This document shows, piece after piece, positions 1,896 through 60,887 of a DNA stretch of 64,000 bases (position 1 is its first letter; each line of letters opens with the position of its first letter). The stretch is from Eledone cirrhosa. Lineage: Eukaryota. The stretch is taken from contig OZ024754.1 in NCBI GenBank assembly GCA_964016885.1, positions 37,820,001 through 37,884,000 of the forward strand. The letters run 5' to 3'. Under the pieces are notes generated by a model. It did not search any database and was not told where the DNA came from. It saw only the letters and a program-made list of their open reading frames with translations. The translations under genes and the position numbers were made by a program.

Positions 1896-1970
1896 CAATA
1901 TTATTATTTAAAAAAAAAATAATAAATAAAGAAATAAAGAAATCAATATTATTATTATTATTATTATTAT

Positions 1971-2257: not shown

Positions 2258-2321
<64 letters not shown>

Positions 2322-2375
2322 GTATCTCTCCCTTCTTTCGACAGTATCTATTTGGCAAAGGTCTGAGCAAGCAAC
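1971..2375. repeat. Dispersed repeat with internal (CA)n; related copy at ~20665-20905, mirror ~11330-11766
   Basis: Shared flanks gcgacagttagaa..aacgcta..gagaattt..aacgcaacaa and tttcg.ca.tat.tattt...agcaagca around CA tracts. Confidence 0.55.
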
Positions 2376-2841
2376 ACCATATTTTGTGGGTAAACAAATG
2401 GCGAATAATAAACGACGACTGAGCAGCTTAATCAGCTCAGGCAGTCTCAGTCAAGATCAAGATATAGTTTTCGTTGATAGTTATTCACGGGGAGTTGTTT
2501 GGACCTATCGTATGTATCCCACAGTGAGTATGTAGCTCTTCTGTTAACCTTTCAATCACCCGTCCCTACATTTATAATATGATGTACAGGGTGGTCCGAA
2601 AGTCTTTTCACCCCCTACCAAGAAGTAATGAGAAACAGTTTATGTTCCCTTCGCAGTATCGTCATCTTCAGAGGAGCTGGTTTACCGAATCTTGCAGTGA
2701 AGTCATGTCGCACATCCTCCATGCTCTTGCCAGAATGTACACGATCATGTGTCCATAAACTTGCAAGCTGCCTCTCTTCCAAACTGTAGGAGCTCTGAAA
2801 TAGAAAATGATATTATTATTATTATATATTATAAAGACGAT

Positions 2842-3013
2842 GGGTTGTCAGTATCGGTAGAAGGTCGGACGCATAGAGTTACGGCCCTTGCCATTCTGAG
2901 TTCAAATCCCCCCGAGGTTAACTTTGCCTTTCATCCTTACGGGGTCAATAAAATAAAGTACCAGTAATGTACTGGGGTAATTGATGGCCTTGTGCCAAAA
3001 GTAGAAACAATTA
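2842..3013 (+). mobile_element. SINE family A copy
   Basis: Same A/B-box and core as 1-181. Tail-to-tail with 3030-3210. Confidence 0.85.
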
Positions 3014-3029
3014 TTATATATTACAAAAG

Positions 3030-3210
3030 TAATTGTTGCTACTTTTGGCACAAGGCCAGCAATTACCCAGTGCATTACTGGTACTTTATTTTATCGACCC
3101 CGTAAGGATGAAAGGCAAAGTTGACCTCGGCGGGATTTGAACTCAGACCGTAAAGGGACGTAACTCTTTGCTGCAAAGCATGGCGTCGAACCCTCTACCG
3201 ATACTGCCAA
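3030..3210 (-). mobile_element. SINE family A copy
   Basis: Full-length match to the family in reverse orientation. Confidence 0.85.
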
Positions 3211-3293
3211 TACACAATGAAAGTCAAAATAATATGTGACAAGGGGTGACAAGACCTTCGGACCACCCTGTATATGAAAGCGTACGCGCTATA

Positions 3294-3583
3294 TTCTTCT
3301 TCTTCTTCTTCTTCTTCTTCTTCTTCTTCTTCTTCTTCTTCTTCGCAACATCACCATCATCATCATCATCATCACCATCAACACCACCACCACCACCACC
3401 ACCACCACCACCATCTCTTCTTATCGCCATCGTCATCATCATCATTACCGTCATCATCATCATCATCATCCTCACCATCATCACCACCGCCGCCGCCGCC
3501 ACCACCACCACCACCACCACCACAATCACCCCCCCCCCCCCCCCATCTTCACCCCCCACCTCCACCATCGTCATCATCATCAA
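3294..3583. repeat. Compound trinucleotide microsatellite (TTC/CAT/CAC/CGC)n
   Basis: Directly visible. Mirror at ~10131-10408. Confidence 0.95.
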
Positions 3584-4244
3584 CTAACATTTTTTTTTTA
3601 CTTCTATAGACATTTGATATATTTAAACCTATGTTTACAACTACAGGTAGGTGTTGTTGTCATACAACAAAACCATGCAACGGAATTTGTGAACCCTGCA
3701 ACTGATAGAGGTTAAACCCAAGTTACTCGTGTTATAAATGCTGGTGATCCAAATTTTGGAATGAAATTAAATTTTTCCACATTTTGTGAAATAAAAGAAA
3801 TCTTTTTGAAATATAAAAAAAATCATCGCTCTACTTGGCTGAATACAGTTTTTCAAATATTAATAATTGTTTCTACTTTTTGGCACAAGGCCAGCAATTA
3901 TCCCAGTGTATTACTGGTACTAATAATAATATTCGATTCGTTTGCAATTATGCAAATAGCCTCTTTTTTGAAGCCATGTCAGTAGAAAACAACAGTAGAA
4001 AACAAGAAAGGAGAAAACAACATTATATATATATATATATATAGTGACGAAACATAAGTCAATTGCGTGAACTCATAATCCTTTATTTACTGCTATATAT
4101 ATTTCGATGATAGCCATTGAATGGCTATGACCTCATCAGGTAGTTAGTCAGCTCTGTGTTTATAGTGTTGATGGTATCAGAGCCTTGGGACATATGTATA
4201 TGTTGATGGTATCAGAGCCTTGGGACATATATATATATAAATAT

Positions 4245-5512
4245 ACTTAGCTTTTATTGACCTAGAGAAGGCCTTTGTAGGGTACCCCGATCTGTCATCT
4301 GGTGGTCCCTAAGGAAACTATGTGTTGAGGAATGGCTTGTGAGGACAGTGCAAGCTATGTACAGAGGTGCTGTCAGTAAAGTGATAGTAGGAATGGAGTT
4401 CAGTGAGGAATTCCAGATACAAGTAGGAGTATATCAGGGTTCGGTCCTCAGCTCGCTCTTGTTCATTATAGTCCTCCAAGCCATAACAGAGGAGTTTAAG
4501 ACTGGCTGTCCATGGGGACTTCTCTATGCTGATGATCAGGTTCTTATAGCAGAATCAGTAGAGGAGCTAGAGAATAAATTCTGGCTATGGAAACAGCAGT
4601 TGGAATCAAGAGGACTGGGAGTGAACCTAGCTAAGACAAAAGTGTTGACAAGTAGATAAGAGGACAAAACTCTGATTCCATCAGGCAAATGGCCATGTTC
4701 GATATATAGGAAAGTAACTGGTATAAATTCTATAAAATATACGCAATGCATATCTTGGGTACACAAGAGATGTAGTGGGATAGCAAGCAAACTAACAGGT
4801 AGGGAAAACTACGTATGCAGTAAATGTACAGGGAAAGTTGACAGTAGTAATCGCAGTGATAGACACATTTTTCAAATGCAGGTGGGTTCTATAGATGTGG
4901 ATGATAGCTTCCGGTACCTAGGTGATCAGATTAGCATGGGAAGGGGTGTTCCGAGGCCATAATATCTAGAATAAGGACGGGTTGGAAGAAGTTTAGGGAG
5001 CTGCTTCCTCTGTTGACAAAGAAGGGTTTCTCTTTGCGTACGAAAGGCCGGTTATATGGTGCTTGTGTGAGATGCGCGATGCTGCATGGTAGTGAGACAT
5101 GGGCAGCAACTACAGAGGATATGCGACGGCTGGAGATAAATGAAGCAAGCATGCTCCGTTGGATGTGCAATGTGCGTGGACGACCAATCATAGATGAGTT
5201 GAGAGAGAAACTGGTATAAGAGGGATAAGTTGTGGCGTGCAGGAGAGAAGACTGAGATGGTATGGACATGTGATGCTCATGCAGGATGACCGCTGGGTAA
5301 AGAAGTGCCAAGAAATCCCAGTAGAAGGAAGGCGCAGTAGAGTAAGACCACGAAAAACATGGGCGGAGGTGGTGAGAGCAGACCTCAGATCACTGAAACT
5401 CACGGAGGAAATGACGAAGGACCGTGACAAGTGGAGAGATGGTGTGCTGAATAGGACCCGTCCCATCCTTGCAAGCAGGGAAAAGCGAACGTAAAATGAT
5501 GATGATGATGAT
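4245..5512 (+). mobile_element. 5'-truncated, decayed RTE-clade LINE
   Basis: RT motifs FIDLEKAF, QGSVLS, LYADD; C-terminal LRWYGHV...GRRSRVRPRKTW; (GAT)n tail; stops and frameshifts. Confidence 0.88.
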
Positions 5513-5815
5513 GTTGATACATATATATATACATATATATACATATATAATTATAAAAAACGAGGAGTCACTGTTGCATCATGTCACATTTATTAACATA
5601 ATACATATCTGTGTTCAGACACACAAAACATATCTGAAGAGTCGGGTTCGATCTGTAAGAGCTGATCGGCGGAGAAGCATATGTAATATGTTAATAAATG
5701 TGACATGATGCAACACTGATTCCTCGTTGTTTATAGTATTATACTCTGCTCTGTGCGAGCATCGAGTGCTCAACCGGCATACCGCCTACGGACGTATTTA
5801 CCTGCAACCTTACAA

Positions 5816-5946
<131 letters not shown>

Positions 5947-6034
5947 ATCTATATATATCATCATCATCACTGTTTAATGTCTATTTTCCATTCTTGCATG
6001 GGTTAGACAGGTCTGCTTATATATATATATATAT

Positions 6035-6075
<41 letters not shown>

Positions 6076-6119
6076 TTTGCGTCCGCTTTTCCCTGATTAT
6101 ATATATGTGTGTTTCTTTA

Positions 6120-6894
<775 letters not shown>

Positions 6895-6982
6895 AAAAAA
6901 AAGGAAAGCATTAAATGACAAAATTTCTCTTAAGTATGTTGGATGAATATTTTCAGGAGACTTGAATATACAAATGAACTTT

Positions 6983-7027
<45 letters not shown>

Positions 7028-7283
7028 ACACACATATATATATACATACATACACACAGACACACATATATCTACGGTTCTTATATATTTGATATATATT
7101 TATCCTTAACGAGCCCTCTTTGGATTTTAGTCTTCAAATTTATTATTATTACTATATATATATATATATATATAAGTAGACCTGTTCACTTGACCAGTCT
7201 AACCCATGCAAGTACGCAAAAAAGACATTAAACAGTGATGATGGTGATGATATATATACATACACACACACACACACACACAC

Positions 7284-7378
<95 letters not shown>

Positions 7379-7387
7379 CATATATAC

Positions 7388-7443
<56 letters not shown>

Positions 7444-7501
7444 ATATATATCATCACCATCATCACTGTTTAATGTCTATTTTCCGTACTTGCATGTATA
7501 T

Positions 7502-7537
<36 letters not shown>

Positions 7538-7538
7538 G

Positions 7539-13734
<6,196 letters not shown>

Positions 13735-20831: not shown

Positions 20832-21276
20832 CATACATACACACACATGCACCATCTCCTCCTTACCTTTCGTCAATATTATTTTACCAAACATCTCAGC
20901 AAGCAGCTGTATGTAAGTAAATCAATAGAGAAGGTAAGCAACTGACATATTTTTTCGCTACCTAAATATTTCCTTCGATGCGAATTAAAATTCCCAATGT
21001 AGAAAGAAAGGAAATACAAAAATAATAGAAAATAAAACCAAAATTCGGATAATTTTCGTCCATGCTGACCGTCTACAATTAATATAATTTTAAAAGAATT
21101 TTACAGAACTGTTTGGATTTTATATTAATATTTCGAGATAAGTAAGCAGTTCGCTTCTTTCAACACACACCACACATACATACATGCATGTATGCATGCA
21201 TACACACATACATACATACATGCATCCATGCATGCATGCATGTATGTATGTGTGTGTGTATACATACATACATACA

Positions 21277-21783: not shown

Positions 21784-22391
21784 ATGGTGGCTGCCAACTC
21801 GTTTTCGAGTACGGCCACTACTTTATATCCATGTAGGAGAACCCCTACCGATGCGCTGAACGAGTGTGACTTTTTAGTCCAGCCAGCGACTTGACAACTC
21901 TGGTACAAACACTACACTTGTGACAATATTTGACACATAGTGCTGGGCCCATGGTACCATGTGACGACAAGTGCAGAGAGATCTCCAGATATAAAGCAAT
22001 GCCTGTGCCGTGAAGCTTTTATAGTGAGAAAAGGCACTGCACAAAGCCAGTCCCACTCTCTTAACCAAGATGATATTTAACAAAAAGAAGAACAAGTCAA
22101 CATCATTGGATACCATCAGGGTTGCAGGTGTTATATCAGAGTTTTCCTTCTCCTAGAATTCTGCCTTGACAAAGGCTAAGGGGTCATCTCTCCCAGTGAT
22201 TTTGGATGGCCATTGACTCATAAGAGCTCCTTTGCCCTTTGACAGGTTTTGTTTTTAGTCCTGCAGGATGTCCAAAGTTACCCTCCTCACCAAGAAACCT
22301 TGGTGGGGTTGCCAGTTTAGTCGCCAACGACCCGACCATGAGACAGGTTGTACTGGGATACATGTTACCAGTAGCACCAACTGGTGACCTG
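21784..22391 (-). mobile_element. ~610-bp non-autonomous element X1 within (CATA)n (second copy 32321-32928)
   Basis: Two near-identical copies with the same ends. RTE-5'UTR-like motifs taaactggcaaccccacc and tctaggagaaggaaaactctga on minus; (ATGT)n tail. Confidence 0.65.
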
Positions 22392-22442
22392 ACATACATA
22401 CATACATACATACATACATACATACATACATACATACATACA

Positions 22443-22976
22443 TGATGGCTGCCCCTTCGTTATCGAGTATGGCCATTGCATGATATACCATTATTAATAA
22501 TTATCAATTAATGCTATCGTGCAATGCCTGTGGGTGAAGATATTTTTTAAAGTGAGGAAAGACTGTACATTGAGCCAATCCCACTCTCTGAGCGACAGTA
22601 ACTATAACCCGAAAAGAAGAAAAGATCAACATCACCGGTAACTACTGAGCCACAGGTTTTATATCAGAGTTATCACAGTTTCCTGAGTTGCCTTCTCCTA
22701 GAAGAATGCCCCGACAAAGGCTAGAGGTCCTTCACTCCCAGTGGTTTAACCGCGTGGTACATGTGTATATACATATTTACACACTTTCGGATGGCCGTTG
22801 GCCCTTATGAGTTCTTCCGCCCTTTGTCAGGTTTTGTTTTTTGTCCTGCTGGGTGTCCAAAATCACCCTCCTCACCAAGTAAACTTGGTGGGGTTGCCAG
22901 TTTAGTCGCCGACGGCCCGACCATGCGACAGGTTGTACTGGGTTACATGTTACTAGTAGCACTCAAGGGTGATCCG
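22443..22976 (-). mobile_element. ~535-bp non-autonomous element X2 within (CATA)n (second copy 24426-24959)
   Basis: Shares both terminal regions with X1. End remnants of about 30 bp at 23220-23249 and 23437-23463. Confidence 0.65.
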
Positions 22977-23102
22977 ACATACATACATACATACATACAT
23001 ACATACATACATACATACATACATACATACATACATACATACATACATCTTTTATTCGAATTCGTAGAGATATCCGACTAAATACATAATTCATTTTACA
23101 AG

Positions 23103-26100
23103 GGTTTGCTACGAATAAGATGGCTGAACACAGCAAGACCAGCAACATTAAAAAAGTACCGAACAAAAACGATGAGAAAGGTAAACAAAATGTACATACG
23201 TACATACATACATACATACATGTTACTAGTAGCACTCAAGGGTGATCCGACATACATACATACATACATACATACATCTTTTATTCGAATTCGTAGAGAT
23301 ATCCGACTAAATACATAATTCATTTTACAAGGATTTGCTACGAATAAGATGGGTGAACACAGCAAGACCAGCAACATTAAGAAAGTAACAACCAAAAACG
23401 ATGAGAAAGGTAAACAAAATGTACATACATACATACATGTTACTAGTAGCACTCAAGGGTGATCATACATACATACATACATACATACATCTTTTATTCG
23501 AATTCGTAGAGATATCCGACTAAATACATAATTCATTTTACAAGGATTTGCGACGAATAAGATGGCTGAAAACAGCAAGACCAGCAACATTAAGAAAGAA
23601 CCGAACAAAAACGATGAGAAAGGTAAACAAAATGTACATACATACATCTTTTCGAATTTGTAGAGATATCTGACTAAATACATAATTCATTTTACTAGGA
23701 TTTGCTGGAAACAGACAGTTTAAAAGACGTAAGACACTCGCCAAGAAAGGTAAACAAAATTTACATACATACATACATCTTTTCTTTGAATTCGTAGAGA
23801 TATCTGACTAAATATATAATTCATTTTACAAGGATTTGTTCCATTGTGCACGAATGACTTCAGCGACATCAGGATTAAGCAATTCCCAAGTGTAACCAAC
23901 GAGAGAGGTAAACAAAATTTAATACATACATACAGACATACAGACATACAAACATACATACATCTTTTCTTCGAATTCGTAGAGATATCTGACTAAATAT
24001 ATAATTCATTTTACAAGCATTTGCTACAAGGAGCATGGATTTCAGCGACACCTGGATTTTTGAGGAATTACCGAAGTTAAACATGTCTGAACACAGCAAG
24101 ACCAGCAACATTAAGGAAGTACCGAACAAAAACGATGAAGAAGGTAAACAAAATTTACATACATGCATGCATACATACATCTTTTATTCGAATTTGTAGA
24201 GGTATCTGACTAAATACATTATTCATTTTACAAGGATTTGCTACGACCAGCAAGGCTGAAGACAACGACATCAATAACATTAAGGAAGTACAGAAGGAAA
24301 ATTACGAGAAAAGTAAGCAAAATTTATTCAGTTGTAGCTCCAGAAGAAACCGAAATTATAAATCGCACATACATACATACATACATACATACATACATAC
24401 ATACATACATACATACATACATACATGATGGCTGCCCCTTCGTTATCGAGTATGGCCATTGCATGATATACCATTATTAATAATTATCAATTAATGCTAT
24501 CGTGCAATGCCTGTGGGTGAAGATATTTTTTAAAGTGAGGAAAGACTGTACATTGAGCCAATCCCACTCTCTGAGCGACAGTAACTATAACCCGAAAAGA
24601 AGAAAAGATCAACATCACCGGTAACTACTGAGCCACAGGTTTTATATCAGAGTTATCATAGTTTCCTGAGTTGCCTTCTCCTAGAAGAATGCCCCGACAA
24701 AGGCTAGAGGTCCTTCACTCCCAGTGGTTTAACCGCGTGGTATATGTGTATATACATATTTACACACTTTCGGATGGCCGTTGGCTCTTATGAGTTCTTC
24801 CGCCCTTTGTCAGGTTTTGTTTTTTGTCCTGCTGGGTGTCCAAAATCACCCTCCTCACCAAGTAAACTTGGTGGGGTTGCCAGTTTAGTCGCCGACGGCC
24901 CGACCATGCGACAGGTTGTACTGGGTTACATGTTACTAGTAGCACTCAAGGGTGATCCGACATACATACATACATACATACATACATACATACATACATA
25001 CATCTTTTATTCGAATTCGTAGAGATATCCGACTAAATACATAATTCATTTTACAAGGATTTGTTCCATTGTGCATCAATGACTTCAGCGACATCAAGCT
25101 TAAGCAATTCCCAAGGGTAACCAACGAGAGAGGTAAACAAAATTTAATACATACATACAGACATACAGACATACAAACATACATACATCTTTTCTTCGAA
25201 TTCGTAGAGATATCTGACTAAATATATAATTCATTTTACAAGCATGTGCTACAAGGAGCATGGATGAAATCACCGACACCTGGATTTTTGAGGAATTACC
25301 GAAGTTAAACATGGCTGAACACAGCAAGACCCGCAACATTAAGGAAGTACCGAACAAAAACGATGAGAAAGGTAAACAAAATTTACATACATGCATGCAT
25401 ACATACATCTTTTATTCGAATTTGTCGAGGTATCTGACTAAATACATTATTCATTTTACAAGCATTTGCTACGACCAGCAAGGCTGAAGACAACGACATC
25501 AATAACATTAAGGAAGTACAGAAGGAAAATTACGAGAAAGGTAAACAAAATTTATTCAGTTGTAGCTACAGAAGAAACCGAAATTATAAATCGCACATAC
25601 ATACATACATACATACATACATACATACATCTTTTATTCGAATTTGTAGAGATATCCGACTAAATACATAATTCATTTTACAAGGATTTGCTACGAATAA
25701 CATGGCTGAACACAGGAACACCAAGAAGATTGAGAAAGTACCGAACGAAAACGATGAGAAAGGTAAACAAAATGTACATACAGACATACAGACATACAAA
25801 CATACATACATCTTTTCTTCGAATTCGTAGAGATATCTGACTAAATATATAATTCATTTTACAAGGATTTGCTACAATGAGCATGGATGAATACAGCGAC
25901 ACCTGGATTTTTGAGGAATTACCGAAGTTAAACGTCGACAAAGGTAAACAAAATTTACATACATGCATGCATACATACATCTTTTATTCGAATTTGTCGA
26001 GGTATCTGACTAAATACATTATTCATTTTACAAGCATTTGCTACGACCAGCAAGGCTGAAGACAACGACATCAATAACATTAAGGAAGTACAGAAGGAAA

Positions 26101-29100
26101 ATTACGAGAAAGGTAAACAAAATTTATTCAGTTGTAGCTACAGAAGAAACCGAAATTATAAATCGCACATACATACATACATACATACATACATACATAC
26201 ATACATACATACATACATCTTTTATTCGAATTTGTAGAGATATCCGACTAAATACATAATTCATTTTACAAGGATTTGCTACGAATAACATGGCTGAACA
26301 CAGGAACACCAAGAAGATTGAGAAAGTACCGAACGAAAACGATGAGAAAGGTAAACAAAATGTACATACAGACATACAGACATACAAACATACATACATC
26401 TTTTCTTCGAATTCGTAGAGATATCTGACTAAATATATAATTCATTTTACAAGGATTTGCTACAATGAGCATGGATGAATACAGCGACACCTGGATTTTT
26501 GAGGAATTACCGAAGTTAAACGTCGACAAAGGTAAACAAAATTTACATACATGCATGCATACATACATCTTTTATTCGAATTTGTAGAGGTATCTGACTA
26601 AATACATTATTCATTTTACAAGGATTTGCTACGAACAACATGGCTGAACACAGCAAGACCAGCAACATTAAGGAAGTACCGAACAAAAACGATGAGAAAG
26701 GTAAACAAAATGTACATACATACATACATACATACATACATACATACATACAACTTTTATTCGAATTCGTAGAGGTATCCGACTAAATACATTATTCATT
26801 TTACAAGGATTTGCTACGACCAGCAAGGCTGAAGACAACGGCATCAATAACATTGAGGAAGTACAGAAGGAAAATTACGAGAAAGGTAAATAAAATTTAT
26901 TCAGTTGTAGCTACAGAAGAAACCGAAATTATAAATCGCACATACATACATACATACATACATACATACATACATACATACATACATACATACATACATA
27001 CATACATACACACATACATACACACATACATACATACATACATACATACATACATACATACATACATACATACATACATACATACAACTTTTATTCGAAT
27101 TCGTAGAGGTATCCGACTAAATACATTATTCATTTTACAAGGATTTGCTACGACCAGCAAGGCTGAAGACAACGGCATCAATAACATTGAGGAAGTACAG
27201 AAGGAAAATTACGAGAAAGGTAAACAAAATTTATTCAGTTGTAGCTACAGAAGAAACCGAAATTATAAATCGCACATACATACATACATACATACATACA
27301 TACATACATACATACACACATACACACATACATACATACATACATACATACATACATACATACATACATACATACATACATACATACATACATACATACA
27401 TACATACATACATACATACATACATACATACATACATACATACATACATACATGCATACATACATACATACATACAACTTTTATTCGAATTCGTAGAGGT
27501 ATCCGACTAAATACATTATTCATTTTACAAGGATTTGCTACGACCAGCAAGGCTGAAGACAACGGCATCAATAACATTGAGGAAGTACAGAAGGAAAATT
27601 ACGAGAAAGGTAAACAAAATTTATTCAGTTGTAGCTACAGAAGAAACCGAAATTATAAATCGCACATACATACATACATACATACATACATACATACATA
27701 CATACACACATACACACATACACACATACATACATACATACATACATACATACATACATACATACATACATACATACATACATACATACAACTTTTATTC
27801 GAATTCGTAGAGGTATCCGACTAAATACATTATTCATTTTACAAGGATTTGCTACGACCAGCAAGGCTGAAGACAACGGCATCAATAACATTGAGGAAGT
27901 ACAGAAGGAAAATTACGAGAAAGGTAAACAAAATTTATTCAGTTGTAGCTACAGAAGAAACCGAAATTATAAATCGCACATACATACATACATACATACA
28001 TACATACATACATACATACATACATACATACATACATACATACATACATACATACATACATACATACATACATACATACATACATACATACCTTAACCTG
28101 TTCTTACAGGATCACTGTGCTGCCAACAAGATCATAACACCTGAGCAAGCTGGTGGAAAGAGGGAGGTGTGGGGTTGCATAGATCACCTACTAACTAACA
28201 AAATGATTCAGGAAAAAACAACAAAGAATCGCAGAAACATGACTGTCGTGTGGCTGGACTATCAAAAAGCATTTGATAGTGTACCTCATGGGTGGATTGT
28301 TAAGGCTTTACAGTTAGCTAAAGTCCCACAACCATTGGTAGCTGCTGTTGAACGCCTGACCAAGGACTGGTACACCAGTTTGATCCTTAGAGGTGAGAAG
28401 GAGCAGGTTAAGACTGATAAGATACATTACCAGAAGGGCATCTTTCAGGGTGATAGCTTGTCAGTGCTACTCTTCGTTCTCTCACTGAATCCACTATCTT
28501 ACCTACTCAGGAAACAAGGTGGACAAAGAAGTGGGACCAGAAGTATCTCCCATCTTTTCTTTGTTGATGACCTGAAGTTGTATGGGCCAAATATCAATGA
28601 CATCAAGAAACAATTGGACCTCATTACACAATTTTCAACCGACATCAAAATGAAATTTGGTGAGTCCAAGTGTGCATATTTGGCAGTAAAACGTGGAAGA
28701 GCTGTGCCCTCCTCTAGAAATCTAGAGATGAACGGCCTGACAATACAACCTCTGCAGTCAGGTGACAACTACAGATATCTTGGACAGGATGAGAATGTCA
28801 GATATGATGGACCCATAAATAAGGAGAGAACCAGAACTGAATACCTCAGAAGAGTAAAGAAAATATGGTCATCAGAACTGTCAGCATACAACAAATACAT
28901 TGCCCACAATACTTATGCTGTGCCAATTCTAACGCCAACATTTGGCCTACTGAACTGGTCATTGCAAGAACTAAGTGAGATGGATGTTAGAACTCGAAAA
29001 CTTCTCAGTGTTACTGGGAACTTTAACATCAATGGTGATGTGGATAGGCTATACTTCTCACGCAAGGAAGGTGGCCGGGGTCTAAAATCAATATTAACAA

Positions 29101-31649
29101 CATATGAGACCCGGATAGTGACACTGAAGCAACACCTTCAACAGAGGAAAAAGGTTGGCAACCATCTTGCCCAGGTTTATGACCATGAAAAAAGAAATAT
29201 CATTAGAATAGCGACTGATCTGGAGGAGAGATATGGAATAAAGCCTGATATAAATCTCTCACCCAGAGAAATCGGAAGATCCTATTCAATGTTCAAACAA
29301 GATAAAAAAATTGACCAATTTACAGAAAAAGTTGTGCATGGATACTTGAGGCGTAAAACACAGACCATAAAGGGGATAAACCACTCAAAAAGCCTGGCAT
29401 GGAGTTCCGACAAGTTTATGACATCACACCTTGAGGGATATCTCTATGCAATACAGGAACAAGAACTCCCTACCAAATATCTGCTGCACAAAAGAGGAGG
29501 GCCAGCAGCTGACAATAAATGTAGGCTATGTAAAACAAAGATCGAGGATGTAAGCCACATTGTTGCCAGCTGCGAAAGAATGTCATCTCGCTACTACCTC
29601 CCCATGAGACACGATGGGATAGCTAGAACCATGTGGAACGCACTTCGGAAAACAAAATTAACAACAAACGAGGAAGAATATATTGAGACAGATGGCACTA
29701 AGGAATACTGGTGGAACCTGAAAATAAAAACTGCCACCAAATTAAAGCACAACCGGCCTGATATTGTAGTTTGGGACCACACATTGAAAACGTGTTCTGT
29801 TGTGGAGATCAGCTGCCCACTTGATGTAAACGTTGTCAGAAAAATACAGGAGAAGGAGGACATCTACGGACCATTGATGAGGAGTTTACAAATCCAGTAT
29901 CCAAGATACACCTTTAGCTTCATACCCATCATTATTGGTGCTACGGGTTATATACCAACCCGCTTGGACCAAAGTATGACTGAACTTGGATTTGTGGACA
30001 AAAAGCGCAGCTCCCTAATTCATAGTCTACAAATGGCTGCGATAGCTGGCACCTTCAAAATTTGCAAAACATTCTTGCGATTCAAGGGATGACAATTTCT
30101 TTTCTTTTACAACCTTGCCACCAGGAAGGTGGCCGGTCAAAAAAATATACTCGAAATTAAGAGAAAGAGAAAACATACACACATACATACACACATACAT
30201 ACATACATACATACATACATACATACATACATACATACATACATACATACATACATACATACATACAACTTTTATTCGAATTCGTAGAGGTATCCGACTA
30301 AATACATTATTCATTTTACAAGGATTTGCTACGACCAGCAAGGCTGAAGACAACGGCATCAATAACATTGAGGAAGTACAGAAGGAAAATTACGAGAAAG
30401 GTAAACAAAATTTATTCAGTTGTAGCTACAGAAGAAACCGAAATTATAAATCGCACATACATACATACATACATACATACATACATACATACATACATAC
30501 ATACATACATACATACACACATACATACATACATACATACATACATACATACATACATACATACATACATACATACACCCTAATTCATAGTCTACAAATG
30601 GCTGCGATAGCTGGCACCTTCAAAATATGCAAAACATTCTTGCGATTCAAGGGATGACAATTTCTTTTCTTTTACAACCTTGCCACCAGGAAGGTGGCCG
30701 GTCAAAAAAATATACTCGAAATTAAGAGAAAGAGAAAACATACATACATACATACATACATACAACTTTTATTCGAATTCGTAGAGGTATCCGACTAAAT
30801 ACATTATTCATTTTACAAGGATTTGCTACGACCAGCAAGGCTGAAGACAACGGCATCAATAACATTGAGGAAGTACAGAAGGAAAATTACGAGAAAGGTA
30901 AACAAAATTTATTCAATTGTAGCTACAGAAGAAACCGAAATTATAAATCGCACATACATACATACATACATACATACATACATACATACATACATACATA
31001 CATACATACATACATACATACATCTTTTATTCGAATCCGTAGAGATATCCGACTAAATACATAATTCATTTTAGAAGAATTTGCTACAAATAACATGGCT
31101 GAACACAGCAAGACCAGCAACATTAAGGAAGTACCGAACAAAAACGATGAGAAAGGTAAACAAAATGTACATACATACATACATACATACATACATACAT
31201 ACATACATACATACACACATACACACATACATACATACATACATACATACATACATACATACATACATACATACATACATACATGCATACATGCATACAT
31301 ACATACATACATACATACATACATACATACATACATACATACATACATACATACATACATACATACATACAACTTTTATTCGAATTCGTAGAGGTATCCG
31401 ACTAAATACATTATTCATTTTACAAGGATTTGCTACGACCAGCAAGGCTGAAGACAACGGCATCAATAACATTAAGGAAGTACAGAAGGAAAATTACGAG
31501 AAAGGTAAACAAAATTTATTCAGTTGTAGCTACAGAAGAAACCGAAATTATAAATCGCACATACATACATACATACATACATACATACATACATACATAC
31601 ATACATACATACATACACACACACATACATACATACATACATACATACA

Positions 31650-31682
<33 letters not shown>

Positions 31683-31685
31683 GCA

Positions 31686-31719
<34 letters not shown>

Positions 31720-33249
31720 CATACATACATACATACATACATACATACATACATACATACATACATACATACAACTTTTATTCGAATTCGTAGAGGTATC
31801 CGACTAAATACATTATTCATTTTACAAGGATTTGCTACGAATAACATGGCTGAACACAGCAAGACCAGCAACATTAAGGAAGTACCGAACAAAAACGATG
31901 AGAAAGGTAAACAAAATGTACATACATACATACATACAACTTTTATTCGAATTCGTAGAGGTATCCGACTAAATACATTATTCATTTTACAAGGATTTGC
32001 TACGACCAGCAAGACTGAAGACAACGACATCAATAACATTAAGGAAGTACAGAAGAAAAATTACGAGAAAGGTAAACAAAATTTATTCAGTTGTAGCTAC
32101 AGAAGAAGCCGAAATTATAAATCGCACATACATACATACATACATACATACATATTTTATTCGAATTCGTAGAGATATCCGACTAAATACATAATTCTTT
32201 TTACAAGGATTTTCTACGAACAACATGGCTGAATACAGCAAGACCAGCAACATTAAGGAAGTACCGAACAAAAACGATGAGAAAGGTAAACAAAATGTAC
32301 ATACATACATACATACATACATGGTGGCTGCCAACTCGTTTTCGAGTACGGCCACTACTTCATATCCATGTAGAAGAACCCCTACCGATGCGCTGTACGA
32401 GTGTGACTTTTTAGTCCAGCCAGCGACTTGAAAACACTGGTACAAACACTACACTTGTGACAATTATTGACACATTGTGCTAGGCCCTTAGTACCATGTG
32501 ACGACAAGTGCAGAGAGATCTCCAGATATAAAGCAATATCTGTGCCGTGAAGCTTTTATAGTGAGCAAAGGCACTGCACAAAGCCAGTCCCACTCTCTTA
32601 ACCAAGATGGTATTTACCAAAAAGAAGAACAAGTCAACATCATTGGATACTATCAGGGTTGCAGGTGATATATCAGAGTTTTCCTTCTCCTAGAATTCTG
32701 CCTTGATAAAGGCTAAGGGGTCATCTCTCCCGGTGATTTTGGATGGCCATTGACTCTTAAGAGCTCCTTTGCCCTTTGACAGGTTTTGTTTTTAGTCCTG
32801 CAGGATGTCCAAAGTCACCCTCCTCACCAAGAAACCTTGGTGGGGTTGCCAGTTTAGTCGCCAACGACCCGACCATGGGACAGGTTGTACTGGGATACAT
32901 GTTACCAGTAGCACCAACTGGTGACCTGACATACATACATACATACATACATACATACATACATACATACATACATACATACATACATACATACATACAT
33001 ACATACATCTTTTATTCGAATTCGTAGAGGTATCCGACTAAATACATTATTCATTTTACAAGGATTTGCTACGACCAGCAAGGCTGAAGACAACGACATC
33101 AATAACATTAAGGAAGTACAGAAGGAAAATTACGAGAAAGGTAAACAAAATTTTTTCAGTTGTAGCTACAGAAGAAACCGAAATTATAAATCGCACATAC
33201 ATACATACATACATACATACATACATACATACATACATACATACATACA

Positions 33250-33280
<31 letters not shown>

Positions 33281-33410
33281 TTTATTCGAATTCGTAGAGA
33301 TATCCGACTAAATACATAATTCATTTTACAAGGATTTGCTACGAATAACATGGCTGAACACAGCAAGACCAGCAACATTAAGAAAGTACCGAACAAAAAC
33401 GACGAGAAAG
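23103..33410 (+). CDS. Predicted array of 29 symmetric phase-1 micro-exons (2328 nt, 776 aa if all included) encoding GFAT...EK repeats
   Basis: AG/GT-bounded, stop-free segments: 23103-23180, 23332-23409, 23545-23622, 23699-23749, 23833-23907, 24018-24143, 24235-24312, 25058-25132, 25243-25371, 25463-25540, 25685-25762, 25866-25943, 26035-26112, 26273-26350, 26454-26531, 26623-26700, 26808-26885, 27142-27219, 27532-27609, 27846-27923, 30323-30400, 30820-30897, 31078-31155, 31427-31504, 31829-31906, 31994-32071, 32208-32285, 33063-33140, 33333-33410. Lengths are 78 (x24), 75 (x2), 51, 126 and 129. No expression data. Confidence 0.65.
28091..30173 (+). mobile_element. 5'-truncated R4/Dong-like non-LTR retrotransposon (RT + CCHC + restriction-like endonuclease) inserted in (CATA)n
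   Basis: Uninterrupted frame to TGA at 30092: WLDYQKAFDSV, GIFQGDSLS, FFVDD, CRLC..HIVASC, RHD, RPDIV..VEISCP..KEDIY. 81-nt 3'UTR. CATA repeats on both sides. Confidence 0.93.
30578..30738 (+). mobile_element. 161-bp 3' fragment of the same R4-like element
   Basis: Near-identical to 30013-30173, with the same gagaaaa|catac junction. Confidence 0.93.
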
Positions 33411-33660
33411 GTAAACAAAATTTATTCAGTTGTAGCTACAGACGAAACCGAAATTATAAATCGCATTTCTCTTGGAGTTGCGAATTTAATGATGATTTAT
33501 TTAATTGTTATAAAATGGCAATAACAAAAAAAATCCCTCCGTTAGCTACATGAACAGAATGAAGCTACACTGGGACGAAATACATCCGGAGCTAAATCAT
33601 TTCACAGCCAAACAAATACGCCAACAAGCGATGTTTGTTGAACGTAAAAATAAGATAAAT
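33411..33660 (+). mobile_element. Decayed N-terminal region of an R4/Dong-like ORF contiguous with the last array unit
   Basis: FSWSCEFNDDLFNCYKMA..(frameshift in A-run ~33526-33533)..PSVSYMNRMKLHWDEIHPELNHFTAKQIRQQAMFVERK. This resembles the W..E.N..L..CY...GY..RM...W....P.....L..Q motif of RLE-type LINE N-termini; recognised from memory, not searched. Confidence 0.6.
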
Positions 33661-34421
33661 ATTATTAATTGTAAGTCCCTCAGAACAAACATGGATTCAA
33701 CAACACGCGATACAGTTCGCCATAACAGTGCCTTGAAACAACTATGCCTGTAAAAAATTTGACACTCCGTGTACCATCTGAGTCTACCTCGACTGTTGTG
33801 GAAAACACTATCGATAATAGCACTATCGTTCGGCTACCTGCCCAGGCTCTGCTGCCTGCCAAACCGAAGAGGGCAAACTATGCAAATATCCGCCGCTCTC
33901 ATATATGTTTGTGGTAGAGCCTGTAGCAGTGGAGACTTCCAGCATTGTCGGACCCTGGACCACATGCCTACTCACTGCTATCGGAGCAGAGTTGGCTGCA
34001 CGCCGATGCGAGCCCCACGAGGTGAAGGGGCTGTTCTAGCTTGTCTCCCTCATCGTACTCTGGGACAATGTATCCAATCTCCATCCTGCCTGGCGGGACC
34101 CATAGGTGGAGTATAAGTTAGTTGGTGGTGAAGGATACTTGTTCGGACTTCACTTTTACACGTGTTTTGAGTGCCTTTTTGAATCCATTCATTTCATATA
34201 ATATATCAACAATAAAATCAATACACAAACACACTAAGAGATTAACCTCTCCGATGTCAAATGACTCAAAGGCCATAATATGAGCAAAGGCGAGCAGAAT
34301 CCCTACTTGACCTTACAAACCTGCTGTTCATGGAACAAATAGAGCTCTATCCAATAAAGGTTAAAAATGACATAAATCTCAGGTTCTAATTTTATTTTTG
34401 TATATATATTTATACACACGC

Positions 34422-37205
<2,784 letters not shown>

Positions 37206-37574: not shown

Positions 37575-38115
37575 TAATCTGTGTTTTTCGAATATTAATA
37601 ATAATATTCGATTCGTTTACAATTCTGCAAACAGCCTCTTTAAAGCCATGTCAGTAGACTGACACCGTCATTCTTGCTCTTGTGTTGGCATGTCAACAGA
37701 ACTGCAGACACTAATGTTTCTGGGTGATTACTCGTCATCAGTACAGTTCACTGTTCACCTGCCAACTGTCAGAGCTAGTGAAAATATATGATATATTCTA
37801 AAATATACAGTGACTGATCGGCCTGATTTGCATATTAGGAGACTGCTTGATCAGTCAGATCTTTATATTAGCAGATCCACTGATCAGCCAGATCCGCATA
37901 TCAGCAGATAGGCCACTCAGTCTCATGTATACGAGCGATTAATGGCCGGCTTTGCCATATTCAAATAACAAAAAAATATAGTTTATCGCTGTTTACATGC
38001 CAACACAAGAGAACGAATGACGTCGTCATTCTACTGACATGGCTTTAAAGCGGCTGTTTGCAGAATTGCAAACGAATCGAATATTATTATCAATATTCGA
38101 AAAACTCAGATTACA
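37575..38115. mobile_element. MITE-like element with ~125-bp imperfect TIRs
   Basis: 37575-37698 pairs with 37991-38115. A related fragment lies at 3825-3985. Confidence 0.65.
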
Positions 38116-38120
38116 TTTAT

Positions 38121-39546
38121 TCATCATAATCATCATCATTTTACGTCCTCTTTTCCCTGCTTGCAAGGGTAGGACGGGTCCTATTCAGCACAGCATCTCT
38201 CCACTTGTCACAGTCCTTCGTCATCTCAGTGAGCTTCAGCCATCTGAGGTCTGCTTTCCCCACCTCCGCCCATGTTCTTCGTGGTCTTCCTCTACTGCGT
38301 CTTCCTTCTACTGGGATTTCTTGGTACTTCTTTACCCAGCGGTCATCCTCCATGCGCATCACATATCCATACCATCTTAGTCTTCTCTCCCGCACACTAC
38401 AACTTATCCCTCTTAAACACAGCTTCTCTCTAACACATCCACGCTCGGTCGCTCACGCACATTGACATTGCACATCCAACGGTGCATGCTTGCTTCATTT
38501 CTCTCCAGCCGTCGCATATCCTCTGCAGTTGCTGCCCATGTCTCACTACCATGCAGTATCGCCCACCTCACACAGGCAGCATATAACCGGCCTTTCGTAC
38601 GCAGGGATAAACCCTTCTTTGTCAACAGAGGAAGCAACTCTCTAAACTTCTTCCAACGCGTCCTTATTCTAGATACTATGGCCTCGGAACACCCCTCTCC
38701 CATGCTAATCTGATCACCTAAGTACCGGAAGCTATCATCTATAGAACCTACCTGCACTTGAAAAATGTTCCTATCAATGCGACTTCTACTGTCAAATTTC
38801 CCTGTACATCTACTGCATACGTAGTTTTCCCTACTTGTTAGTCTGCCTGCTATCCCACTACATCTTTTGTGTATTCAAGATCTGCATTGTGTACATTTTA
38901 TAGAATTTATGCCAGTTCCTTTTCTGCGTATCGAACATGGCCATTTCCCTGATGGAATCAGAGTTTTGTCCTCTTATCTACTTGTCAACACTTTTGTCTT
39001 AGCCTGGTTCACTCTCAGTCCTCTTAATTCCGATTGCTGTTTCGATAGCTAGAATTTATTCTCTAGCTCCTCTACTGATTCTGCTATAAGAACCAGATCG
39101 TCAGCATAGAGAAGTTCCCATGGACAGCCAGTCTTAAAATCCTCTGTTATGGCTTGGGGGACTAAAATGAACAAGAGCGAGCTGAGGACCGAGCCTTGAT
39201 GTACTCTTACCTGTATCTGGAATTCCTCACTAGACTCCATTCCTACTCTGACTTTACTGACAGCACCTCTGTACAAAGCTTGCACTGTCCTCACAAGCCA
39301 TTCCTCAACACCTAGTTTCCTTAGGGACCACCAGATGCCAGATCGGGTTACCCTATCAAAGGCCTTCTCTAGGTCAATAAAAACTAAATATAGTGGCTTA
39401 TTCTTCTCTAAGTACCTCTCTTGTAGTTGTCTCACTAAGAAGAGGGCATCTGTTGTACTTTTCCGAGGCACAAAACGAAACTGCATCTCATCTAGTTTGA
39501 CCCTTTCTCTAATTAGTTGTGCTAATATCCTTTCTGTCACTTTCAT
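38121..39546 (-). mobile_element. 5'-truncated RTE-clade LINE (same family as 4245-5512)
   Basis: QFRF..STTDA, FIDLEKAFD, HQGSVLS, LYADD, LRWYG. (GAT)n tail. 5' junction in (TA)n. Confidence 0.9.
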
Positions 39547-39814
39547 ATATATATATACAGGATCTGTTTATTTTTTTTAATATAAATATATTTTATAAAT
39601 ATATAAATATATTTTAAGGATCTGTTTATCTTTTTTTCTTCTTTTTTTTAAAAAAAGGTGTTTTATAATGTATATAAAAATATATATTTTAGATATTTTA
39701 TATACATTATATAATTGTTCCTCTCATCTTTTCAATAATGTTACTTTGACGGATCAAAGAAGAAAAAAAGAAAAACAGATCCTTAAATATATTTTCCGTG
39801 CTATTTCCAATTCC

Positions 39815-40249: not shown

Positions 40250-42489
40250 TATAAACGTTTGAATATGTATAATAAAGCCAAAACAATGCAGGTATGGACA
40301 TAGAAAAAAGAATGCAATTGCAAAAGATATTGTTGACAAATCGTCTTTTACCTTAGATTTATTTAAATGTCCTTAATTTTCGAGATAATATCTCTTCTTC
40401 AGAGGGAAATAAAGGTCTCAAACCAGCCTTCTAAATATCTTGCCAAGCCATGCTGACAGGAAATAGTATAGAGTATCTGTTCTATCTCTAATGTCAAAGA
40501 GTTAAAATTAGGTGGATAAAGAGTAGTCTCCCTTTAAAAGGGGTTTGTTTAGGTTTTTTTTTTAAATTTTATATATACATGCCTGTTTAAGTGTGTGGGA
40601 GAATGCATGAAGGTGTAAGTATGTGAGTGTGTGTGTGTGAGTGTGAGAAGATAAGTCTATTCGTAAATGTGGGGGATAGGTGTTATCTGGTGTTAGAACT
40701 GGTTTTGTGTGTGTATGTGTGAGAGAGAATAAGTGGAGGTGTAAGCGTGTGTGTGTGGGGGGGGGGTGTAAATATGGGGCTAGAAGCCCTATCAGGTTAT
40801 AAATTGGGTGTTGAGTTCTAGTCTATTATTGATTGGTGGTTGTGTTTTATCTATAATTAGTGCTTCCTTAATTCTAAGATTGCCGAGGTTTCTTTCCTTA
40901 GTTTCTATCCTAACTGTTATGGTTTTGTCGGTGTTTTTGCATTTAGCTAGGTGTTTCTTAAATGAGGAAGCGTTAGTATTGAGGTGTTCTTTTATTCTTA
41001 TGTGGAGTGGTCTGGTGGTGCTACCTACGTAGAAGTTGTTGCATTTGTCACACTCTAGTCTGTATACGACGTAAGCCTGATGGCATAGGTCTGTGTCGTT
41101 GATGGGGCAGTTGGCTAGTCTGCAACAGTTGTCATGTCTGGTGGAGTGTCTTTTGGTTAGGTTAGCTGTCCGCGTAGAGAAGGACCTGAGTGGGCCAGTT
41201 GGATATCTAGTCCCTCTCGTCTGATGGCTCTGCGGATGGCTGTTGTTGTTTCTTCACTGAAGTGCGGGAGCTTCAGGAAGCAAGTGTTAGTGCCTCGGGT
41301 GTGGTATCCTCTGTTCTTTCTGGCACGGTTTGTGGTGGATGTCGTGTATCCGTTCAGTTTGAGTACTTCCAGGAAATGTGTGGTGTATGTGTCTCGGTCT
41401 CTAGCGTCGGTGCATTTGTTCCGGATACGTGCCAGTTCGTTCCTTATGTATCCGAACTTGGCACCGAGTGGGAGGGCCGATCTGAAATGTACGAACAGGT
41501 CCCTGCTGGCGGCTTTTTTATAGAAGCAGGTGTGGATGTTGCCTTCCTCTGTTACCCTGAGTTGGAAGTCCAGTAGGGATAGGGATCCGCGGTCATCGGG
41601 GTGTTCCATGCTGAACTTTATACTGGCGTCCATGCTGGAGAATGTTGTGTATATTTTATCTGCCTCCTCACGGGATGATGTAAGGATGAGTATGTCATCT
41701 ACATATCGGGTGAAGAAGGCATGGGAATGGCAGGTGTTGAGGGCTCGGCATTCTAGCTGGTTCATGTAGGTGATGGCCAGCAGGCCCGATAGGCTGGATC
41801 CCATGGGTAATCCTGTTGTCTGTCTGTATGTGTGGTGGTGGAAGGTGAAGTACGTGTTGTCTACTGTGAAGGACAAAAGCTGGTGTATGTCCGTCGGGTG
41901 GAGGCCGTAGCAGTGGATGTCCTCTGCGACCACGCAGTCCGTCAATAAATCGACAGCTGGATGAGCGGGGACTGTAGTGTAGAGGGAGACAACGTCTCGG
42001 CTAAAAGCGTATTTATTTAGTTTAAGTTGTTCTGGCTGGAGTTGGTGTAGTCTACGTATAACTTCGTCGGAGCTACTGACATGCCCGGGAAGGTGGAGAG
42101 TAGAGGCTTGAGGACCTGGGAGAGGAGCCAGAAAATTTTGTATAGGGGTCCTTCTATGCTAGAGACGATGGGTCTTATTTGCGTCTTAGTACTATTCTTG
42201 TGGGTCTTGATGAGGTGGTAGAAAGTGGGCAGTCTGCTATTTCTAGTGGTGTAGTTGAGCTTAATTTTATTTGGGAGTTGTCTTCTCCTACAGATATCGA
42301 ACCAAATGGAGTTGATCTGTTTTTCGATCTGGGCTGCAGTCATGTCCGGGATCTCTGTGTATAATTCATTGTCGCTTAGGTGTTCAAAGGATAGGTTATT
42401 GTATGTGGCTTGAGAGATGACGCAAAACTCTTTACCTTTGTCGGATGGTAAGTATATAAGTTCCCTATTCCTTAGGTTAACCTCCTCCA
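40250..42489 (-). mobile_element. 5'-truncated Penelope-like element (second family)
   Basis: PSDKG, YHLIKTHK..IRPIVS, GLPMGSSLSG, RYVDD, LLDF; GIY-YIG VVYRLECDKCNNFYVGSTTRPLHIRIKEH. Frameshifted. Confidence 0.92.
40371..40406 (-). ncRNA. Minimal hammerhead ribozyme motif of Penelope repeat
   Basis: cct-CTGAAGA-agagat att atctc-GAAAA-TTA-agg on minus. Confidence 0.6.
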
Positions 42490-42504
42490 TATATATATAT
42501 ATAT

Positions 42505-42997
42505 GAAATGAAAATTGATGGAGGCTGCGGAGTGGGTAGACCAAGAAAAACCTGGGACGAGGTGACAAAACCTGACCTTGCCCACCTACAGCTCTCTAAC
42601 ACAATGACACTGGATCGAGACCCTTGGCGCCATACAGTTGTACAGAAGACCCGACTACCATTGCATACAAACCTACAGTCAGTAGGCATCTCTTAACTCA
42701 ATGTACACCCCACCGCTACATCCTCCCTCTCCCGTTCCGTCCACTGTGTCAATGACACAACAATCCACACTGTAAGGTGGTCGTGCAGGAGTCACGGTGA
42801 AAAGTCTCCCAGTCCACACTCTAAAAGTGTTTGGTGTTAGGAAGGGCATCCAGCTGTAAAAAAACCCCCACCAGAGTCGCTTCCGTGCGAGTGAGACACG
42901 GTGTCTCGACCATTCCCGCATCAAATTGAACAAAACCGTCTAACCCATGCTAGCGTGGAAGATGAATCTTAAACGAAAATGGTGATGATGATGATGA
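42505..42997 (+). mobile_element. RTE 3' fragment plus RTE-related SINE-like tail
   Basis: GRPRKTWDEV motif, ggaagggcatccagctgtaaaa, ctaacccatgctagcgtggaagat and (GAT)n. Relatives at ~43990-44140, 51277-51720, 62445-62725 and 63078-63360. Confidence 0.7.
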
Positions 42998-43692: not shown

Positions 43693-43753
43693 TTGACGGC
43701 TGAGAAGAAAGAGTAATCATATTCATATATTCATTAACTTTTCAGAAATTCCA

Positions 43754-43984
43754 ATGTCTGAAGAAGGTCAAGGCAGAAAGAAGGAACAGAAGAAAATAAG
43801 AATCTGGTGGTTTGAACGCTCAGAATTGATATTAATTTTCTTCACCCCTGTGATGCTCTTGTCCCAGACACTCTTGCATTACTACGTGGACTGGCGAATA
43901 GGAAAGAATTACTATCGAAAGCACAATACCGCCTTCTCTTCGACTTGTAACCATCGCCATCAGTCTATAAAAAATCATCATAAG
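43754..43984 (+). CDS. SLC46A1-like: SLC46-family (PCFT-like) MFS transporter, TM1/loop-1 exon
   Basis: MSEEG...ELILIFFTPVMLLSQTLLHYYVDWRI...STCNH...HK, parallel to PCFT EPLVFL...QYLWHRF...C. Phase-0 donor AAG|GTAAGA. Acceptor ttttcag ends at 43745. Confidence 0.8.
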
Positions 43985-52954: not shown

Positions 52955-53804
52955 GTGCAACGTTTGACAGCTTTATGGATAACAGATATGTTAGCTTTGG
53001 AATCCTTTCTGAGCATTTTTACAATATTTGTAATACATTCACTGAGCGAAGTATATGGTCGCAAATTCGGCATGCTGGTGTCTTCGACCGGCACTATCAT
53101 GAAAATCGTTTTAAGTGCAGTGACGATCTACTATACACTTCCATTGGAGGTCTTATTTGTAGCCAGCGCTATTAATGGCATCACTGGTGGACCTGCGAGC
53201 TTTATCACTTGTGCTGTGTCACAGATTACCGATACGTACCCGCACAAAGATAAGAGCTGCCGTAAATTTATAAGAGCTCAAAATCTTTCATTTGGAATAG
53301 CCGGCCTTTTTACAATTTATTTCGGCTTAATCATAGAAATCTTTGGCTATTTCTCCGCTTGCGTATTTTTGCTCCCTTTAGCTGTTCTCAATATAGTCAT
53401 CATTCTACACCTTCCAGATAACTCCACACAGAAGGAAGTCGATTGGAACTTTTCTAAAATTAAAACGTCATTTATAAAGATATGGAACGTAATGACTATT
53501 AGGAAACGGTTGTTGTTGTTCTTATTCATATCAGCCTCACCCATTAGTTATATGCCTCTTGGAGGACAGACTTTCTATACCACACAATTACTTATTAACA
53601 TACCATTTTGCACCAGCATTTTCTTCACCGGATTTACTTTGGCTATTTCCACTTTCACTTTTTTAACACCAAATTACTACTCATACCGACTGAATAAACC
53701 AGGTTTTTCTGTCAATACTATAATTGCTGGAAATCTGTTTGTCGGATACCTTAGCAGTCTCATCATTACAATAGCAGAAAAAAGAAATACATATTATGAT
53801 GCAG
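52955..53804 (+). CDS. SLC46A1-like: SLC46-family MFS transporter, large 850-nt exon (about TM2-TM9)
   Basis: Strong polypyrimidine acceptor; VQRLTALW..SEVYGRK (MFS motif A-like)..GITGG..ITD; multiple TM segments; phase-1 donor CAG|GTATAA. Confidence 0.9.
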
Positions 53805-58353: not shown

Positions 58354-58437
58354 TTTTGGTCAACAACAACGCTGTCTTTCTGATATTGTATCTGACCATC
58401 AGAACCATGTTACCTTCTCTTGAAATTAAATTGCACG
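58354..58437 (+). CDS. SLC46A1-like: SLC46-family transporter, 84-nt phase 1-1 exon
   Basis: ctaac branch + tag acceptor; (V)LVNNNAVFLILYLTIRTMLPSLEIKLH(G); donor ACG|GTAAAG. Size and phase match the 84-nt third exon of human SLC46A1. Confidence 0.8.
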
Positions 58438-59184: not shown

Positions 59185-59341
59185 GTTATCTCTATGCCTT
59201 GTTGTTCACTATGAATTCATTTGGTACAACACTAATGTTACCTCTACTCAATACGATATATTTGAAAACATTCACATACTTTCCTGGTGCTGTATTTTGC
59301 CCCTATGCCGCAATCCTTTTTATTGCTACAGTCACTCAAAT
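59185..59341 (+). CDS. SLC46A1-like: SLC46-family transporter, 157-nt exon (TM11-12)
   Basis: ttctttag acceptor; (G)YLYALLF..LLNTIYLKT..FPGAVF; donor AT|GTAAGT. The terminal exon was not located. Confidence 0.88.

Positions 59342-60846: not shown

Positions 60847-60887
<41 letters not shown>

Follow-up and report, generated by a model that had tools for sequence, protein, structure and literature searches.

What is a series of 29 short units, separated by (CATA)n and each open in one reading frame between an AG and a GT, doing upstream of a transporter gene? The series lies in the window analyzed here, a 64,000 nt stretch of the Eledone cirrhosa genome (assembly GCA_964016885.1, contig OZ024754.1, positions 37,820,001 to 37,884,000, forward strand); coordinates refer to the window unless the contig accession is given. 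The initial annotation, made from this sequence alone, interpreted the units as hypervariable, frame-symmetric micro-exons encoding an unrecognized protein repeat, any subset of which could be spliced in frame. Based on comparisons within the genome and on the pattern of substitutions among units, this locus is a real feature and probably coding. The array comprises the following features:

23047..33464, + strand: array cluster 6, 29 LINE-derived units separated by (CATA)n, amounting to 776 codons with full inclusion
23047..33464, + strand: unit layout, consisting of a left flank of ~55 nt, AG, a core of 51-129 nt, GT and a short right flank
23103..23180, + strand: core of unit 1, a candidate first coding exon with a LINE-derived ATG at 23120-23122
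33280..33819, + strand: last unit, continuous with decayed ORF sequence of the parent LINE (85% identity to dispersed copy L029)

The structural description in the initial annotation was reproduced following a recount. There are 29 units (first core from 23103, last core to 33410) with core lengths of 78 nt (24 units), 75 nt (two units), 51 nt, 126 nt and 129 nt, unit 23 being 78 or 81 nt at its NAGNAG. Every core is open in the phase-1 frame of the + strand, five peptide classes are found, and the variants said to keep the splice dinucleotides (TAG at 23696-8, NAGNAG at 31072-7 and GTAAGC at 24313) are present, as are the shortest spacers of 76, 83, 87 and 91 nt. Spacers are mostly 76-300 nt in length, with a median of 87 nt. 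The order of classes in the window (AAAEDXBDXBaCBaCABBBBBBABABABA) indicates higher-order duplication, and each of the 126 and 129 nt cores looks like a fusion of two classes with the frame kept. The proposal that variation is confined to the core holds for the mean pairwise difference in the window (0.177 in the core versus 0.050 in the left flank for 17 distinct 78 nt units) but not for recent private mutations, which across all clusters number 2.36 per site in the core and 2.33 in the left flank. The contrast between core and flank thus belongs to older, between-class divergence. A hypermutable core was rejected on the same equality of private rates.

The window array is only the last of six clusters, the other five having gone unnoticed. 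A search of 314 kb around the window (357 units with a substitution-only finder and six recovered later) identified 363 units over ~217 kb, every one on the + strand. Clusters 1 to 6 contain 6, 240, 44, 32, 12 and 29 units, respectively, where the 12 of cluster 5 is a lower bound as this cluster stops at a gap of 200 N. The units fall into 39 sequence classes, and the first and last unit types are common to the paralogues described below. Units are not independent of each other, because of higher-order repeats and likely gene conversion. AG and GT are both intact in 321 units. Of the remaining 42, 39 have one common GT-to-CT change. A dead-donor class, copied 36 times via higher-order repeats in cluster 2 (OZ024754.1 37658000-37718000), includes both broken cores of the whole array. 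Three units were parsed by hand; one of these, u198, has a duplicated acceptor and would be a broken 116 nt exon if the upstream acceptor copy were used. A dispersed SINE was ruled out as the identity of the unit because two unit-to-spacer junction patterns, searched genome-wide, had all of their matches (120/120 and 177/177) inside the 314 kb stretch.

The unit sequence is hydrophilic, with a roughly balanced charge (K 16%, E 14%, N 12.5%). The longest unit had no Pfam family and no match in a protein database word search, a weak negative given that the same kind of search missed relatives of a transporter exon later found by HMMER. The PDB contained no direct match for the exons, and the best Atlas score for a unit was only 0.76, which is uninformative. 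Contigs from three runs of unstated type (X1-X3) cover units in part of paralogue p3 (12 units plus exon A), but as these runs possibly derive from the same individual as the assembly, they are not independent support for the array. They behave as DNA, covering both unique intronic sequence and genome-wide repeats, and are uninformative with respect to splicing: among the 15 joints listed of 397, none was GT..AG (12 units plus exon A of p3, with the window array outside the comparison).

The origin of the unit, which the initial annotation did not spot, became apparent from single copies on other contigs. These extend on both sides into a ~4 kb element within (CATA)n, and the element's ORF begins at an ATG inside the core and continues through a reverse transcriptase to a terminus resembling an endonuclease. 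These comparisons identify the unit as the 5' terminus of an R4/Dong-like LINE, comprising the end of its UTR and its first ~20 codons. Dispersed copy L032 matches Pfam RVT_1 (E-value: 3e-16) and the best solved-structure relatives of the LINE are R2 proteins; a zf-RVT match at the C-terminal end is weak and below the cut-off, and a Pfam search with the N-terminal 185 aa found nothing. Motifs seen by eye (C..C...H....C and PD...D) are taken by us to be a zinc knuckle and a restriction-like endonuclease. A first look at the genome gave 1,635 dispersed candidates. In the 33 copies compared here (the 30 best matches plus three, biased to one young subfamily), (CATA)4 or longer lies no more than 260 nt upstream in 26, consistent with a microsatellite insertion target. 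LINEs of the R4/Dong clade encode a reverse transcriptase and a restriction-like endonuclease and have microsatellite targets (PMC7998251, PMC13282606, PMC8967140), and they are abundant and recently active in octopuses, including Octopus vulgaris (PMC13282606). The element described here has all three properties in common with them; its clade is assigned by resemblance, as it fits the description in the available text of PMC7998251, and its target is (CATA)n, whereas the R4/Dong target in most molluscs of that study is (TAA)n.

AG is present in 31/33 and GT in 32/33 of these dispersed copies, the length is 78 or 81 nt in all of them, and stops occur in 2/33, at a divergence far below that of the array units. 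The splice-like dinucleotides, the frame, the ATG and the 3 nt length steps were therefore already in the parent LINE and are, alone, no evidence of exons. In the window, p2 and p3, the last unit extends into 400-560 nt of LINE; at 33280..33819 this remnant marks the original LINE insertion.

The second element missed by the initial annotation is a gene on the same strand as the array. Its predicted exons in the window are as follows:

21107..21141, + strand: candidate upstream exon of 35 nt (AG...GT), which precedes each of the six clusters and contains a stop in the frame of the units
43746..43984, + strand: transporter exon A (acceptor of phase 1, matching the frame of the units; donor of phase 0)
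52955..53804, + strand: transporter exon B, encoding the SLC46-like MFS core and intact in 5 paralogues
58354..58437, + strand: transporter exon B2 of 84 nt, phase 1-1, found in 6/6 paralogues
59185..59341, + strand: transporter exon C, with the last predicted helices

Exons A, B, B2 and C have mutually compatible phases, and the 35 nt upstream exon is probably 5' UTR, judging from its stop. Exon B scores 0.98 against MFS_1 clusters in the Atlas. HMMER identified 210 relatives of it, with MFS_1 in three of the four that were scanned; the best is Octopus bimaculoides LOC106869723 (40% identity over exon B). A weaker match (P0008) is named SLC46A3-like, and another match (P0003) fits the PCFT structure at 5.5e-34. 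The product is predicted to be an SLC46-like MFS transporter, the SLC46 resemblance resting on these weaker, indirect matches. Exon B is highly diverged: it has no direct Pfam or PDB match, and a protein database word search found none either, a weak negative given the 210 HMMER relatives.

The gene is tandemly repeated. Five copies of exon B are intact, the window's own being one of these, with 96-98% DNA identity to the window's. In a sixth copy (p5), only later exons are visible past the gap. Every cluster follows one common upstream segment and five of the six precede an exon A; cluster 5 ends at the 200 N assembly gap (OZ024754.1 37812067-37812266) where exons A and B of p5 are expected. 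Exon A, which contains the first hydrophobic segment, is phase 1 in four paralogues; p4 has lost both the acceptor and the ATG to a deletion, and the AG that follows there likewise gives phase 1. It has its own ATG (codon 3) in 4/5 copies, so a short, tail-less transporter is possible. Among paralogues, pN of exon B is similar to or greater than pS, with few changes and no purifying signal, and some copies may therefore be decaying.

A divergent paralogue, p0 (43%), lies on the opposite strand. Its exon A encodes ~120 aa of K/E/N/G pentamer repeats (L009; OZ024754.1 37627153-37626600, minus strand); it is head-to-head with p1, with a candidate ATG exon near 37632375 and a similar upstream segment. 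The O. bimaculoides homologue has three acidic heptamers in its N-terminal tail and no LINE-derived units. Unrelated charged repeats in the N-terminal tails of both hint that such a tail is favoured. Two further relatives of exon B were observed. A partial copy of its 5' part, with an inverted arm, is located ~1.1 kb before exon B in each of p1-p4 and is absent from the window paralogue, and a stop-containing relative (33% identity) lies ~110 kb downstream:

OZ024754.1 37643011-37643312, 37725695-37725990, 37758615-37758899 and 37795967-37796244: partial copies of exon B
OZ024754.1 37997343-37997879, minus strand: stop-containing relative of exon B

An R4/Dong-like LINE in (CATA)n thus lies in sense upstream of exon A, its 5' piece carries an acceptor, an ATG, ~20 codons and a donor phased with exon A, and this piece is present as 363 tandem copies across six gene paralogues. 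The reading that we favour, and consider fairly likely, is that the piece has been exonised and that most copies are included and translated into the transporter as a charged N-terminal tail. On this model, a LINE would have landed ahead of exon A in sense orientation, and its 5' end would have been captured as a phase 1-1 exon with its own start codon. The (CATA)n spacers would then have allowed the captured exon to multiply by slippage or unequal crossing-over. As first and last unit types are common to the paralogues, amplification would have occurred both before and after gene duplication. Because each exon is 3n in length and phase 1-1, copy number can vary without loss of frame. Most exons with intact sites would be spliced in, with translation beginning at the first LINE ATG and continuing into the transporter.

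The predicted product is a K/E/N-rich, charge-balanced cytosolic tail of ~150-5,100 aa depending on the paralogue, ~770 aa for the window (154, 5,094, 1,072, 815, 308 and 776 aa for clusters 1 to 6 if all intact exons are included). The N-terminus of MFS proteins is on the cytosolic side. The tail is probably disordered, given its composition, and would most likely work as a bulk spacer or regulatory tail of the titin PEVK kind, depending more on length and charge than on the precise residues. Several points count against this reading: the match in phase between units and exon A has a 1-in-3 chance, the LINE already supplied the frame, the ATG and the splice-like sites, exon A mostly has its own ATG, recent amino acid change in the units is neutral, and exon B lacks a purifying signal.

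The evidence for translation is found in the mutations that the units have, and have not, accumulated. First, private mutations in 315 units with intact sites created no new stops in the predicted frame, where 6.7 were expected (P=0.001), while the five control frames showed observed/expected values of 14/13.0, 9/13.0, 4/4.4, 14/10.2 and 7/7.2. This depletion, seen only in the predicted frame, points to selection for translation of the units. A tree-based count with 244 distinct units whose sites are intact gave 505 codon changes and no stops versus 15.5-18.3 expected, an expectation inflated by homoplasy from gene conversion; for the window only, the values were 0 versus 3.5-3.7 (P 0.02-0.03). 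Second, only one of 333 private mutations hit AG or GT, compared with 9.8 expected (P=6e-4). Third, one-base indels were found in the left flank of eight units and in none of the cores with intact sites. Broken units were 0/321 of those with AG and GT and 2/42 of those without (Fisher P=0.013). None of these patterns is predicted for a silent satellite.

Part of this constraint has other possible sources. Keeping the frame of the transporter alone could explain some of it. Retention would leave an open, in-frame path through just 13% of spacers, so loss of a splice site could be harmful through intron retention alone. Rescue of dead donors by in-frame intron retention was considered and rejected: only 4/40 such introns keep the frame without a stop, the same rate as for other introns (40/309).

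Recent amino acid change looks neutral (omega of 1.13 for private changes), and older divergence is modestly accelerated. Between class representatives, there are 3.96 nonsynonymous, 2.29 synonymous and 1.13 flank changes per site, giving an omega of 1.6-1.9 (P 0.002-0.053, depending on threshold and masking). The excess of synonymous core changes over flank changes indicates that homogenisation of the flank or splice constraint adds to the contrast between core and flank. The nonsynonymous excess of old over private changes is borderline (P 0.05-0.18), and in the window alone it is not significant (P 0.15-0.6).

The proposal of frame-symmetric exons is therefore upheld in part. Coding is supported indirectly, by frame-specific stop depletion, conserved splice dinucleotides and a next exon in phase, but diversification through any subset of exons, like that of Dscam or schistosome micro-exon genes (MEGs), is not borne out, as such strong purging of stops better fits high inclusion than a one-of-many choice. 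In its strongest form, that idea holds that each transcript includes a small, variable subset of the units and that the resulting N-terminal repertoire is under diversifying selection. All exons are symmetric and fall into 39 classes, between-class changes rank nonsynonymous above synonymous above flank, and the array persists even though 42 units have lost a splice site, all of which speaks in favour of this idea. However, a stop in one of 200 optional exons should be cheap, yet none was seen; the nonsynonymous excess is marginal; the spacers are very short; and the partner is a polytopic transporter with a cytosolic N-terminus rather than a secreted, surface or Ig-type receptor. We consider this reading unlikely.

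We also give little credence to a separate product, whereby the units would be spliced and translated as a low-complexity protein of their own, which would terminate in the LINE remnant or in a different exon, and the transporter would start at the exon A ATG. The selection tests indicate translation and not the partner exon, exon A does have its own ATG and in the window lies 10.3 kb past the last unit, and p4 retains 32 intact units despite deletion of the normal exon A acceptor. On the other hand, every cluster has the common upstream segment on one side and exon A on the other, with strand and phase in agreement; the stop that closes the LINE remnant behind the last unit differs between paralogues; and no other candidate last exon was noticed in an unsystematic look.

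Finally, a plain TE satellite, intronic or upstream, never spliced and turning over neutrally with inherited sites and frame, would account for the pre-existence of every exon-like feature in the LINE, for lengths of 75, 78 and 81 nt (possible by (AAC)n slippage), for a private omega of ~1 and for equal private rates in core and flank, but is improbable because it does not predict a stop depletion limited to one of six frames, AG/GT depletion, flank-only one-base indels or the position of both broken cores among the 42 dead-site units.

Returning to the favoured reading, in which most units are included in the transporter, its two components have known counterparts. In Lyosin/MYL4, BCNT-p97 and other host gene fusions, fragments of LINE ORFs provide the first or last coding exon (PMC12129022). 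As in those cases, a piece of a LINE ORF in its own frame is joined to a host protein, by splicing that is predicted here; the examples described there are single exons under purifying selection, whereas here a ~25-codon R4/Dong-like 5' piece is present in 363 copies with an omega of at least 1. The PEVK region of titin has 81-116 exons across mammals (PMC6469411), and symmetric exons encoding disorder have been described (PMC3632108). In PEVK as in the array, a charged, low-complexity region is divided among numerous short exons and grows and shrinks by tandem duplication. No sequence relation between them has been shown, and the array is TE-derived, lineage-specific and hosted by a polytopic transporter, while in the available text of PMC6469411 LINE-1 only promotes duplications and a TE derivation of PEVK is not reported.

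Schistosome MEGs likewise have small symmetric exons, family expansion and dN/dS near or above 1 (PMC4350168, bioRxiv 10.1101/2023.06.21.545858), but they have signal peptides and long introns and are restricted to flatworms, whereas the units described here have short spacers, come from one TE fragment and are predicted to encode a transporter tail. If spliced, the 29 window exons would make up 776 of ~1,220 codons, so that mostly small symmetric exons are found here as in MEGs; the units are hydrophilic, the partner is an MFS protein and the homologue is from an octopod. In Dscam-type arrays, one exon per cluster is chosen via docking/selector pairing, yielding Ig-domain variants; stop purging argues against such one-of-many use of the units. 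By analogy, the array would work like a titin PEVK-type symmetric exon array derived from a Lyosin-type LINE exon; it is not an MEG by membership and Dscam-like choice is unsupported.

TE exonisation and exon array expansion are each known separately, and their combination in one TE fragment at such a scale appears to be new: neither this locus nor the amplification of a TE fragment to hundreds of coding exons is described in the literature searched, which did not include most subscription journals. The ancestral LINE persists as many dispersed copies in the same genome, an internal neutral control, and the locus is thus a direct test of how a disordered protein repeat emerges from junk DNA, and of whether the protein itself or the frame only is the target of selection. 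If real, a tail of 770-5,000 aa from up to 200 tiny exons would escape, or be masked by, routine annotation. The fullest version, a repeat born from retrotransposon codons as 363 symmetric exons under positive selection, with alternative inclusion tuning a tail of up to ~5,000 residues and with a charged tail lengthened three separate times by unrelated repeats, is doubtful.

Several other elements occupy (CATA)n in and around the array; those associated with CATA sit in spacers and none was seen inside a core:

28092..30170, + strand: separate, 5'-truncated RT/endonuclease LINE in the (CATA)n spacer between units 20 and 21, with a 3' fragment at 30578-30738
24427..24959, strand unassigned: SINE-like insert in a CATA spacer, with a second copy at 22444-22976
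21786-22391 and 32323-32928: second SINE-like family

The (CATA)n sequences thus host insertions of two or more SINE-like families and of a second LINE family with RT and endonuclease (21786-22976, 24427-24959, 32323-32928 and 28092-30170), and 3' ends of such families also cap the spacers at 23200-23460 and 30578-30738. Decayed RT-type elements were seen by eye, from ORF translations and sequence, in the transporter introns (34570-35750, 38100-39570, 40790-42600 and 59470-60890). At the left end of the window, mirrored tandem repeats and BLAST matches reveal a large inverted duplication (1-13500, centre near 6800), either a palindrome or an assembly artefact.
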